DNA of 64,000 nucleotides from a virus (Duplodnaviria > Heunggongvirae > Uroviricota > Caudoviricetes): the IMG/VR virus record IMGVR_UViG_2851976983_000001, positions 1 to 64,000 of that record; one strand, written 5' to 3'. Below the pieces are notes generated by a model that ran no database searches, was not told the DNA's origin, and saw only the letters and a program-made list of their open reading frames with translations. Within the stretch, counting starts at the first letter, position 1; the number at the start of each line of letters is the position of its first letter. Shown in pieces: positions 48,856 to 51,046 of this stretch. A program made the translations under genes and the position numbers.

Positions 48856-49644
48856 TCACGGCAGTTTTGCTCTAATTTCGAGTAATTTTTGTGCCGTGAC
48901 GCTGATGTCATAAGCCAGATCTTGGGTTTGGTTAATGATTCCGTAAAAGCGCTCAACCTCTTCAGGATAAAAACGTCTGATATGGGGGATGTCGATATAA
49001 TCATAATACCCAAGCCCACCCGCGGAATATTCTCTGAAAAGCGCCCAAAAGTTGTTCACTTTCCCGACCAACTCCATACGGATTGTTTCTAAAACAACAT
49101 CATTGAAGCTGTAAAAGGGGTTATAGGCAATATTATCAAATGCGTAGAGTGGGTCGGTAATGTTGGTGCTTACTTTTGCCCGGAACTGTTCGCTCTTCAG
49201 CATTTGGAGGTAGTTATAATTAAAAATATCAGTAATAGCTTTTAGAACACCGATGTCTCTATCTGAGTAATTGTTCTGGCTCACCTGGTGCGTCATTTGA
49301 AGCAGTAAAGATTGCCGAGTTTCGGCCAGTTGCTTCCAGTTTTTCAATTGCTCAACAGAATAGATAGTGTGGTCAGAGTCAATGAGTGCGCCATGTGAAC
49401 GACACATCCATATACCGTTATCAATCGAGCTTCGCTGTTCTGGGGTCAAGCTAGGATCATATCTCGGCCCACCTGGCGCTGCTGCTGTAATATGGGCCGC
49501 AATACCATTATTAATCCTGCCGTTTGTATCACTGCTATCCGGGCCTACTGTTGTCTGGTTGCAGCCAAGAAAAGAGCATTTCCAGCCTACGCGTTCGGCC
49601 AGTGTTCGCTTCACCGATTGGGGAAAATCATCTCTGTTACTCAC
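48856..49644 (-). CDS. HNH-type nuclease-domain protein
   Basis: N-terminal Cys/His pattern WKCSFLGC...AAHITAA..GGPRYD...NGIWMCRSHGALID (CxxxxC, His, CxxH); C-terminal 160 aa unassigned. Confidence 0.5.
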   Translation of the reverse strand: MSNRDDFPQSVKRTLAERVGWKCSFLGCNQTTVGPDSSDTNGRINNGIAAHITAAAPGGPRYDPSLTPEQRSSIDNGIWMCRSHGALIDSDHTIYSVEQLKNWKQLAETRQSLLLQMTHQVSQNNYSDRDIGVLKAITDIFNYNYLQMLKSEQFRAKVSTNITDPLYAFDNIAYNPFYSFNDVVLETIRMELVGKVNNFWALFREYSAGGLGYYDYIDIPHIRRFYPEEVERFYGIINQTQDLAYDISVTAQKLLEIRAKLP

Positions 49645-49684
49645 GATTAACCTCGCTGTGTTTAAACAATCTTATGGTTATTTG

Positions 49685-50254
49685 TTAGTGGCGTTTGTCT
49701 TCTTCCAGACGCGCCGTTTTTAAGTGTTTGTCGGTAAAGGTAAGTAACGTTACGCCCTCATCTTTATTCATGAAACCGGCACCGTTTATCATCATGATCA
49801 GGCGCTCTTTGCCGCGGAATACCTCATAATACTTTCCCGCTGCACATGACATTGTCTTGGCGCACTCCAACCCATTCAAGGCTGTTTCATCAAATACCTG
49901 ATCTTTAGTGGCAACCGGCTTCCCGTATTCTTTCGTAAGCATTTCGTCGAGCTGCATGAAGGTATACTTGCCGACGTTGGTAGTCATGCTTGACTCAACT
50001 TTGCCATCAATCAATCCACCGGTGGTATGCGGTTCCTTACCTTCAGCCGCTGCTTTATCGAACAAAGCGAAGGCTTCGATGTTTGGGGTTCGTTTTTCAA
50101 AGTGGGTTTTGTACTGGCTCTCAAGGGAGTTTTTGTCCTGACCGATTAGTGTAATTTTATCGACTTCAGACTCGTTGCATCCCGTGAGTGTGAACGCGAT
50201 TATTAGAGAGGTGAGAATAGTGAAGTTGCGCTTTTTCATTGATGCTATCTCCAT
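49685..50254 (-). CDS. putative lipoprotein
   Basis: Signal peptide with lipobox LTGC. Confidence 0.5.
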   Translation of the reverse strand: MEIASMKKRNFTILTSLIIAFTLTGCNESEVDKITLIGQDKNSLESQYKTHFEKRTPNIEAFALFDKAAAEGKEPHTTGGLIDGKVESSMTTNVGKYTFMQLDEMLTKEYGKPVATKDQVFDETALNGLECAKTMSCAAGKYYEVFRGKERLIMMINGAGFMNKDEGVTLLTFTDKHLKTARLEEDKRH

Positions 50255-50317
50255 GCAAACAGCTACGTTCCTACTACGGGTGGCACTTCAGATAAATACT
50301 TTAGACCTTGGCAGATA

Positions 50318-51046
50318 TTAACCGATGCTGTTTTGATACCTGCGAACTGCCGCATCCAATTCACTAACATATCGATTAAACTCACCCACAACATACTCCA
50401 AAAATTGATCGTCCATGAGGACACCGTTGAAGAAATTTACTGTTATACCGGCGTTTTCATTCTTTGCACGATTGATTGCGCGGATATCTCGCTTCTGTGT
50501 TTCTGACTTCTTTGCTTTTGATTTTAAAAGGTTATGATAGTTTTCGGCAACACCATCGTTGTGAGCCATGATATTTCTGATGGCCGCCAGATGAGCAATA
50601 TCCCTGATGCCTTTGCCTCCTATGGTTCCAGTAAGTCGCTTATGGCAATCTTCGACCGTTTTGAATCTTTTGTCTGTCACCTCGCCCGACAATCTATCCA
50701 TGACCTCAAGGCATTCAACCATGCGGTGTTCAAATAACCCGAACATCGTCAGAAATGCCGAACGACGAGTAAGTTGTGAAATCAAGTGCTTGTATTCCGA
50801 TTTGACTTCATCAGCATCGAATCCAGAACATGAACCGCAGGTAAAATACTGTACCGTATATAGATGAATTTTACCTTCATCGTCCTCATGCTCATCGTCA
50901 TACTCACCCTCCGAGACTGCGCCCGGAAGATCGGCATCACTAAGAGCGCGAGCAATGTTTACTTCAGCCTGTTCAGCTAGCATCTTCATGATTGTAATTG
51001 ATTTCGTGGCTCCCCAAAGTTGTAGATTAATAAATATCTTTGCCAT
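50318..51046 (-). CDS. hypothetical protein with HEPN-like Rx4H motif
   Basis: HLAAIRNIMAHNDG carries an RNxxxH-type motif; acidic N-terminal region; assignment weak. Confidence 0.4.
   Translation of the reverse strand: MAKIFINLQLWGATKSITIMKMLAEQAEVNIARALSDADLPGAVSEGEYDDEHEDDEGKIHLYTVQYFTCGSCSGFDADEVKSEYKHLISQLTRRSAFLTMFGLFEHRMVECLEVMDRLSGEVTDKRFKTVEDCHKRLTGTIGGKGIRDIAHLAAIRNIMAHNDGVAENYHNLLKSKAKKSETQKRDIRAINRAKNENAGITVNFFNGVLMDDQFLEYVVGEFNRYVSELDAAVRRYQNSIG

Follow-up and report, generated by a model that had tools for sequence, protein, structure and literature searches.

Three separate cargo cassettes, two of them with predicted nucleases, in a phoH-to-tRNA-Asn hotspot of an SSU5/pHCM2-type phage-plasmid

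Introduction

Do three neighbouring genes of hypothetical annotation on a phage-plasmid act together as one defence system, or do they merely share an address? The question is raised by a locus in the first 64,000 nucleotides of the IMG/VR virus record IMGVR_UViG_2851976983_000001 (Caudoviricetes), the stretch analysed here, which we call the window and to which positions refer unless another source is named. The region under study is 100% identical to the Escherichia coli plasmid p503829_100 (NZ_CP025870.1) and about 93% identical to pHCM2 of Salmonella Typhi CT18, and the window is therefore assigned to the SSU5/pHCM2-type phage-plasmids. An earlier note, made from the letters of the window, had picked out three consecutive minus-strand genes as a candidate defence or exclusion locus and possibly an undescribed system. 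The open reading frames (ORFs) confirm these genes, and RefSeq labels the products of all three as hypothetical proteins:

48856-49644, minus strand: g1, HNH nuclease domain followed by a C-terminal helical bundle
49685-50239, minus strand: g2, lipoprotein of 184 residues
50318-51046, minus strand: g3, protein of 242 residues assigned to the HEPN superfamily

Comparison with relatives gives a different answer from that of a single system: the interval 48.8-51.6 kb is probably a mosaic islet of cargo, placed in a hotspot of recombination and composed of three self-contained single-gene cassettes.

Results

The three genes are exchanged separately

Each of the three genes is a discrete insertion/deletion cassette that is exchanged independently of the other two. 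In the same slot of syntenic relatives, pHCM2 carries all three, Enterobacter CP104404 carries g1 and g2, and Klebsiella JP20 carries g3 alone. Citrobacter OW849258 has g2 and g3 and lacks the span 48878-49678, which delimits the g1 cassette, and an Enterobacter relative lacks the span 50256-51612, which in SSU5-type elements holds g3 together with a leader of about 570 bp. Alleles are also mixed, since a g1 at 93% identity is found with a g2 at 66%, and a g1 at 57% with a g2 at 93%.

The numbers of occurrences are very unequal. PLSDB contains about 72 records with g1 and 73 with its C-terminal domain, 105 with g2 and 242 with g3, compared with 36 records (S. Typhi pHCM2 included) that hold the trio; at least 30 records thus have g2 without the g1 C-terminal domain (105 versus 73). 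The g3 records are mostly from Klebsiella (154) and include 92 conjugative plasmids, and the listed Klebsiella g3 plasmids of 150-370 kb include non-SSU5 backbones such as that of locus L020. Among 5,426 complete E. coli genomes, 17 gave a match, always on a plasmid: one of the 17 carries the trio and at least 14 carry g1 and g2 only. A wider sample of 191 loci, fetched from GTDB genomes, IMG/VR and contigs, was searched by tblastn. Full-length g1 stands alone in nine of these loci, from six lineages, and 27 loci have g3 with neither g1 nor g2; g1 and g2 are found without g3 in 11, and g2 and g3 without g1 in one. On backbones other than SSU5, no locus of this sample has g1 and g3 within 6 kb of each other, and no partner, immunity or antitoxin ORF is conserved beside either of them in unrelated contexts.

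These observations bear directly on the idea that the trio forms one abortive-infection or exclusion system, with the lipoprotein as envelope sensor or anchor and g1 and g3 as DNase and RNase effectors. It is true that the genes share a strand, that the gaps between them are short (40 nt and about 65-80 nt), that a sequence scan found no convincing terminators between them and that the trio has been kept in the 36 PLSDB records. As no convincing terminator separates them, the genes are probably co-transcribed in this element in the order g3, g2, g1, an arrangement that is not the same thing as a single system. Since every subset occurs in syntenic relatives, the counts are unequal (most of the positive E. 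coli genomes having g1 and g2 only), alleles reassort, no partner is conserved and g1 and g3 are each solitary in unrelated elements, we do not take the three genes to be one system, and a three-component machine is very unlikely. In base composition the islet cannot be told from the backbone.

A narrower unit can be envisaged in which g1 and g2, as nuclease and lipoprotein, work together on SSU5-type elements and g3 stands apart. The pair is indeed coherent on this backbone: g1 lies directly downstream of g2 in 18 of the 19 fetched SSU5-backbone loci with g2, even where the g1 allele is 57% identical, and at least 14 E. coli plasmids hold exactly these two genes. Yet g1 is found without any g2 homologue in the six other lineages, g2 is found without g1 in Citrobacter, on IncY plasmids and in the 30 or more PLSDB records mentioned above, and the alleles reassort; moreover, a cytoplasmic DNase and an outer-membrane lipoprotein would have no obvious route to interaction. 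We judge such a two-gene unit to be quite unlikely, and retain the reading of three separate cassettes.

A cargo slot between phoH and tRNA-Asn

In comparison with relatives that carry other cargo, homology ends at 48780-48877 and resumes at 51603-51615. The features of the slot and its flanks are as follows:

47969-48757, minus strand: phoH, conserved left flank of the slot (RefSeq start at 48742)
48774-48802: promoter-like site near phoH, from a sequence scan
51047-51612, no strand assigned: non-coding g3 leader, which accompanies g3 in SSU5-type elements
51616-51635, minus strand: intrinsic-terminator-like hairpin 3' of tRNA-Asn, right edge of the slot
51794-51868, minus strand: tRNA-Asn (GTT), a backbone feature

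The right boundary of homology coincides with the terminator hairpin that follows tRNA-Asn, and the hotspot is bounded by this hairpin on one side and by the phoH promoter region on the other. On the minus strand the order of genes is DNA ligase, small ORFs, tRNA-Asn, g3, g2, g1, phoH, a gp49-family gene, grxA and integrase.

The content of the slot varies widely. E. coli p113_MLI102 has an AbiGi-family gene (PADLOC 5e-47, Pfam 1.7e-24) and a second gene at this place, and an Enterobacter plasmid has transposase genes of the IS110, Tn3 and IS6 types beside sul1. Further relatives have genes of 398-529 residues without assignment, one of which gives a sub-threshold AbiC-like match, and g1, g2 and g3 are absent from most family members. 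The phoH-to-tRNA-Asn slot is a cargo hotspot of the SSU5/pHCM2-type phage-plasmids. The tRNA genes beside it vary as well (Asn; Ser and Asn; or Ser, Thr, Tyr and Asn; loci L029, 7454-8011; L005, 5928-6236; L028, 7519-8057), and the arrangement with four tRNAs occurs with the AbiGi cargo. The window itself has a single tRNA and not the 'tRNA hub' of the earlier note; the number in relatives reaches four at this site.

Hotspots for anti-phage genes have been described in P2 and P4 elements (2022, PMC9122126). The principle is the one seen here, namely a fixed site with conserved flanks and interchangeable cargo that includes Abi genes, although the backbone (an SSU5-type phage-plasmid) and the site (phoH to tRNA-Asn) differ. 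Our literature searches found no description of a defence hotspot in SSU5 phage-plasmids or of the phoH/tRNA-Asn slot, and no mention of PDC-M68.

g1 joins an HNH nuclease domain to a helical bundle

The N-terminal HNH-type motif claimed for g1 is upheld by conservation among 28 homologues, in which C23, C28, H51, C81, H84 and D89 are invariant and N76 is nearly so. PADLOC HNH-effector profiles match at 1e-20 to 1e-8, every match ending at about residue 128; the Pfam HNH_2 model gives only 0.2. The HNH domain is of Cap5 type and covers approximately residues 1-120, and the model of the nuclease domain gave a structural match to an HNH/Cap5-type module. The C-terminal part, which had been left without a family, stays so: residues 125-262 (about 140 residues) are modelled as an all-helical, four-helix bundle with generic structural matches only, and judging from this model the bundle belongs to no known family. 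In PLSDB the bundle was seen solely with the HNH domain and was not found on other effectors. The HNH module, for its part, is joined elsewhere to many different C-terminal domains, TIR among them, as is expected of a shuffled effector module.

The closest known comparison is Cap5 of the cyclic-oligonucleotide-based anti-phage signalling systems (CBASS), an HNH-SAVED protein (for example PDB entry 7rwk) whose HNH module resembles that of g1. However, the SAVED sensor domain is absent from g1, both in the PADLOC matches and in the model of residues 125-262. Cap5 is encoded in an operon with a CD-NTase, whereas the neighbours of g1 are phoH, the lipoprotein gene and the HEPN gene, with no CD-NTase gene nearby. 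Because g1 has no SAVED domain and no CD-NTase in its vicinity, and because the gene occurs alone, a cyclic-nucleotide trigger is unlikely.

Relatives of g1 are found at accessory sites of other mobile elements. In Rouxiella the gene lies in a P2-like prophage, in an accessory position after the tail-fibre genes; in a Klebsiella island it adjoins an integrase; and a 'lysogenic conversion protein' of P2-EC46 shows 38% identity to residues 4-175 of g1. The P2-like and integrase-adjacent sites are of the kind described as P2/P4 anti-phage hotspots by Rousset 2022 (PMC9122126), a paper in which HNH is not mentioned.

g3 is a stand-alone member of the HEPN superfamily

The third gene was singled out for an RNxxxH motif (AIRNIMAH, residues 155-162), and this assignment is borne out by several lines of profile evidence. 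Across 32 homologues with identities as low as 38%, R157, N158 and H162 do not vary. The direct matches of g3 are weak (PADLOC RTasHEPN 9e-4, Cas13c 8e-3, an Abi PHROG 0.03), and neither g3 nor any of 31 close homologues reaches the threshold of a Pfam HEPN model, the marginal matches being to HEPN_Swt1 and RiboL-PSP. Its more distant relatives are clearer. A profile of the g3 family found 115 proteins among 1.84 billion representatives. Fifty distant relatives, at about 18% identity, were scanned: RTasHEPN is matched by 40 of them (best 7.5e-10), HEPN_RiboL-PSP by seven (PF18735; best 9e-6), and AbiD, CARF-HEPN or Cas13c models by a few. R157 and H162 are invariant throughout the set of 51 sequences formed with g3. 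Aligned by hhalign, the g3 family (A1) and the RTasHEPN-matching relatives (A5) give a probability of 99.8% (E 1.7e-27) with IRNxxxHNDG in register. On the strength of motif and profiles together we accept g3 as a HEPN-superfamily protein; it stands alone and is a predicted RNase. At 90% identity the family falls into about 120 clusters, every one of them named 'hypothetical' and without a Pfam domain, and it is distinguished by an N-terminal helix and β-hairpin extension and a conserved CGSC motif.

RTasHEPN (PADLOC PDLC03820) and HEPN_RiboL-PSP are thus its nearest families by sequence, but g3 has no reverse transcriptase or L-PSP partner in any context examined. Searches of PDB sequences with the g3 profiles A1 and A3 returned no matches or noise, and Foldseek found no significant match of the g3 model in the PDB, only spurious long-helix matches such as OprM.

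The relatives of g3 are located on integrative and conjugative elements (ICEs; Dickeya, Pectobacterium), on small islands with an integrase or transposase (Aeromonas, Yersinia), on large plasmids of Klebsiella, and on plasmids of Serratia, where the neighbours are Abi_2, TIR and DUF4145 genes. In some non-SSU5 loci a different enzyme gene lies immediately upstream of the g3 homologue on the same strand, with a gap of 16-90 nt: a GIY-YIG nuclease on Klebsiella IncFIB plasmids, a trypsin-like protease on Serratia plasmids and an NYN/OST-HTH protein in Pseudomonas (L020, 5151-5984; L016, 4510-5940; L012, 5137-5910). Such pairs are not universal and could mark two-gene variants. As a rule, g3 as the fixed partner of a variable upstream enzyme was rejected because in ICEs and islands it stands alone, with neighbouring genes on the opposite strand, and no partner is conserved. 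A link between tRNA-Asn and a tRNA-targeting g3 was likewise rejected: the tRNA occurs in relatives with and without g3.

A candidate structured element in the g3 leader

The leader and g3 are absent together in locus L004. In 192 loci, the leader is present at every SSU5-backbone g3 locus for which the region is available and nowhere else, that is, neither in SSU5 loci without g3 nor in non-SSU5 g3 loci. In its core, at about 51247-51390, conservation in the alignment exceeds that of the g3 coding sequence. Overlapping this core is a possible transcription unit on the strand opposite to g3:

51309-51337, plus strand: promoter-like site before the candidate RNA
51344-51447, plus strand: candidate structured small RNA or regulatory element with three hairpins, the last of which is the intrinsic terminator
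51408-51437 and T-run, plus strand: intrinsic terminator of the candidate RNA

The candidate RNA, of about 100 nt, has a minimum free energy of -43.5 kcal/mol (z -6.3). Five pairs of the middle hairpin are preserved by double substitutions, a thin covariation signal from about three independent lineages, and no Rfam family reached its gathering score on the leader. A GC-rich hairpin at 51130-51153, flanked by A-runs and T-runs, is terminator-like on both strands; the start of g3 follows about 85 nt downstream, with no good σ70 promoter recognizable in between. The leader RNA may be a regulator or an antitoxin-like RNA of g3, or the region may be just a bidirectional terminator.

An antitoxin-like RNA would suit the view that the nuclease genes are addiction or stabilization toxins that maintain the plasmid-prophage and have no anti-phage role. 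Nevertheless, neither an MNT nor any other protein antitoxin is conserved beside g3 or g1 (for MNT nucleotidyltransferases next to g3, in the window and in 15 g3 contexts), the leader element is missing from all non-SSU5 g3 loci, and many family members persist without these genes. Addiction is therefore an unlikely explanation, and g1 and g3 are most likely to be, each by itself, nuclease candidates for abortive infection or for competition between mobile elements.

g2 is a lipoprotein of a narrow family

Translation of g2 from the ATG at 50239 gives 184 residues (an alternative ATG lies upstream at 50254), beginning with a signal that consists of an n-region (MKKRNF), an h-region (TILTSLIIAFT) and a lipobox (LTG|C). 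L18, T19, G20, C21 and N22 are invariant in nine homologues, in line with the identification of the gene product as a lipoprotein. The mature part has 164 residues and two conserved cysteines. The residue after the lipobox cysteine sorts lipoproteins (the +2 rule), and with an asparagine at this position g2 is predicted to go to the outer membrane.

The family is narrow, with 16 clusters, and restricted to enterobacterial phage-plasmids. Its sole strong match is phrog_15156, of no assigned function, and searches of Pfam, NCBIfam, PADLOC and the PDB gave no significant match. In IncY plasmids, IncY being the replicon type of P1, g2 occurs without g1. One of these, E. coli pTET-GZEC065 (L192, 1948-4555), has a g2 homologue at 66% identity, no g1, and nearby a gene of the YaaC family, a family classed as HEPN-like.

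The phage lipoproteins Llp of T5 and Cor of phi80 and N15 act in exclusion. Like them, g2 is prophage-encoded, predicted to be in the outer membrane, located in an accessory slot and confined to a narrow phage lineage, but it is larger, resembles no annotated family and has no sequence or profile similarity to Llp, Cor or TraT. It is most likely a candidate exclusion lipoprotein.

Some phages use HNH proteins to assist packaging and include lipoproteins in their lysis cassettes, and the three genes might on this general ground serve the lytic cycle, as a terminase helper, a spanin-like lipoprotein and a host-takeover RNase. The particulars do not fit. The HNH domain is of the Cap5/CBASS effector type and not of the packaging type (E 0.39 to the HNH endonucleases of phrog_740); g2, at 184 residues, lacks a transmembrane segment at its C-terminus and does not lie within an Rz-like gene; the locus adjoins phoH and a tRNA, not terminase or lysis genes; and most family members lack the three genes altogether. 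A lytic role is extremely unlikely, and we return to the reading of the genes as separate cargo.

Other features of the element

A second variable site is the interval between integrase and grxA (46917-47129), which was compared with loci L003-L006, L027 and L030. Relatives have a YafO-family toxin and a partner gene there, to which Klebsiella adds a colicin E1-type immunity gene; in the window the interval is empty of such genes. At 37035-37453 on the plus strand, the cspA thermoregulator family of Rfam matches over its full length (185.7 bits against a gathering score of 78), and the phage-plasmid accordingly encodes a cold-shock gene of cspA type with a thermosensing 5' untranslated region.

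Discussion

A contribution to defence or exclusion, the wider suggestion of the earlier note, remains plausible because an AbiGi gene occupies the same slot, relatives of g1 lie at prophage and integrase sites, and relatives of g3 keep company with Abi_2, TIR and DUF4145 genes; its narrower suggestion of one undescribed three-gene system does not survive the comparison. Profile searches recovered both the HNH and the HEPN domain. Pfam and NCBIfam gave nothing significant on any of the three proteins, and PADLOC-DB 2.0.0 has no full-length model for them, the matches being partial for g1, where they cover the HNH domain, sub-threshold for g3 and nil for g2. A published DefenseFinder 1.3.0 survey found no defence system in pHCM2-like phage-plasmids. 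Given the lack of a full-length PADLOC model and the outcome of that survey, g1 and g3 are unrecognized candidates. They are candidates for a well-known kind of gene, the single-gene nucleases of abortive infection that sit in mobile-element hotspots.

A precedent for g3 is HepS, which is encoded by prophage Gifsy-1 of Salmonella and brings about abortive infection as a single HEPN protein: it is activated by siphovirus tail-tip proteins and cleaves the anticodon loops of tRNAs (PMC13043305; PDB entry 9oik). There is no detectable sequence homology between the two, the profile searches of PDB sequences having given nothing, and g3 has the N-terminal helix, β-hairpin and CGSC motif of its own. 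By analogy, g3 may be a latent HEPN RNase that is both sensor and executor, so that a competing phage or mobile element, on infecting the cell, would activate it and the cell would be arrested. For g1 we propose a Cap5-type HNH DNase in which the helical bundle would stand in for SAVED, restraining the nuclease until a trigger is sensed and DNA degradation follows. The most tentative of the three proposals concerns g2, which at the outer membrane could act in lysogenic conversion or superinfection exclusion and would change the cell surface or stop the entry of related phages.

One may go further and see in g1 and g3 the founders of two new and widespread families of single-protein nuclease immunity. 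In such a scheme g3 would sense for itself and, in this lineage, might form an RNA-antitoxin/HEPN pair with the leader RNA as its control; g1, as a 'SAVED-less Cap5', would sense a phage component directly; and with the co-transcribed lipoprotein the islet would raise a barrier at the envelope, DNA and RNA. We find this conceivable but rather unlikely as a whole.

Phage-plasmids of the SSU5/pHCM2 type, usually termed cryptic, occur commonly in S. Typhi, Shigella, E. coli and Klebsiella. What is new here is the definition of a phoH-to-tRNA-Asn cargo slot in these elements, together with two unannotated families of predicted nucleases, a SAVED-less Cap5-like HNH protein and a HEPN protein without a Pfam model, both of which escape current defence-finding tools. 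The outcome corrects the unsupported idea of a three-gene system and replaces it with a short list of single genes worth testing. If g3 is active, it would represent a plasmid-borne HEPN abortive-infection gene carried by hundreds of clinical plasmids.

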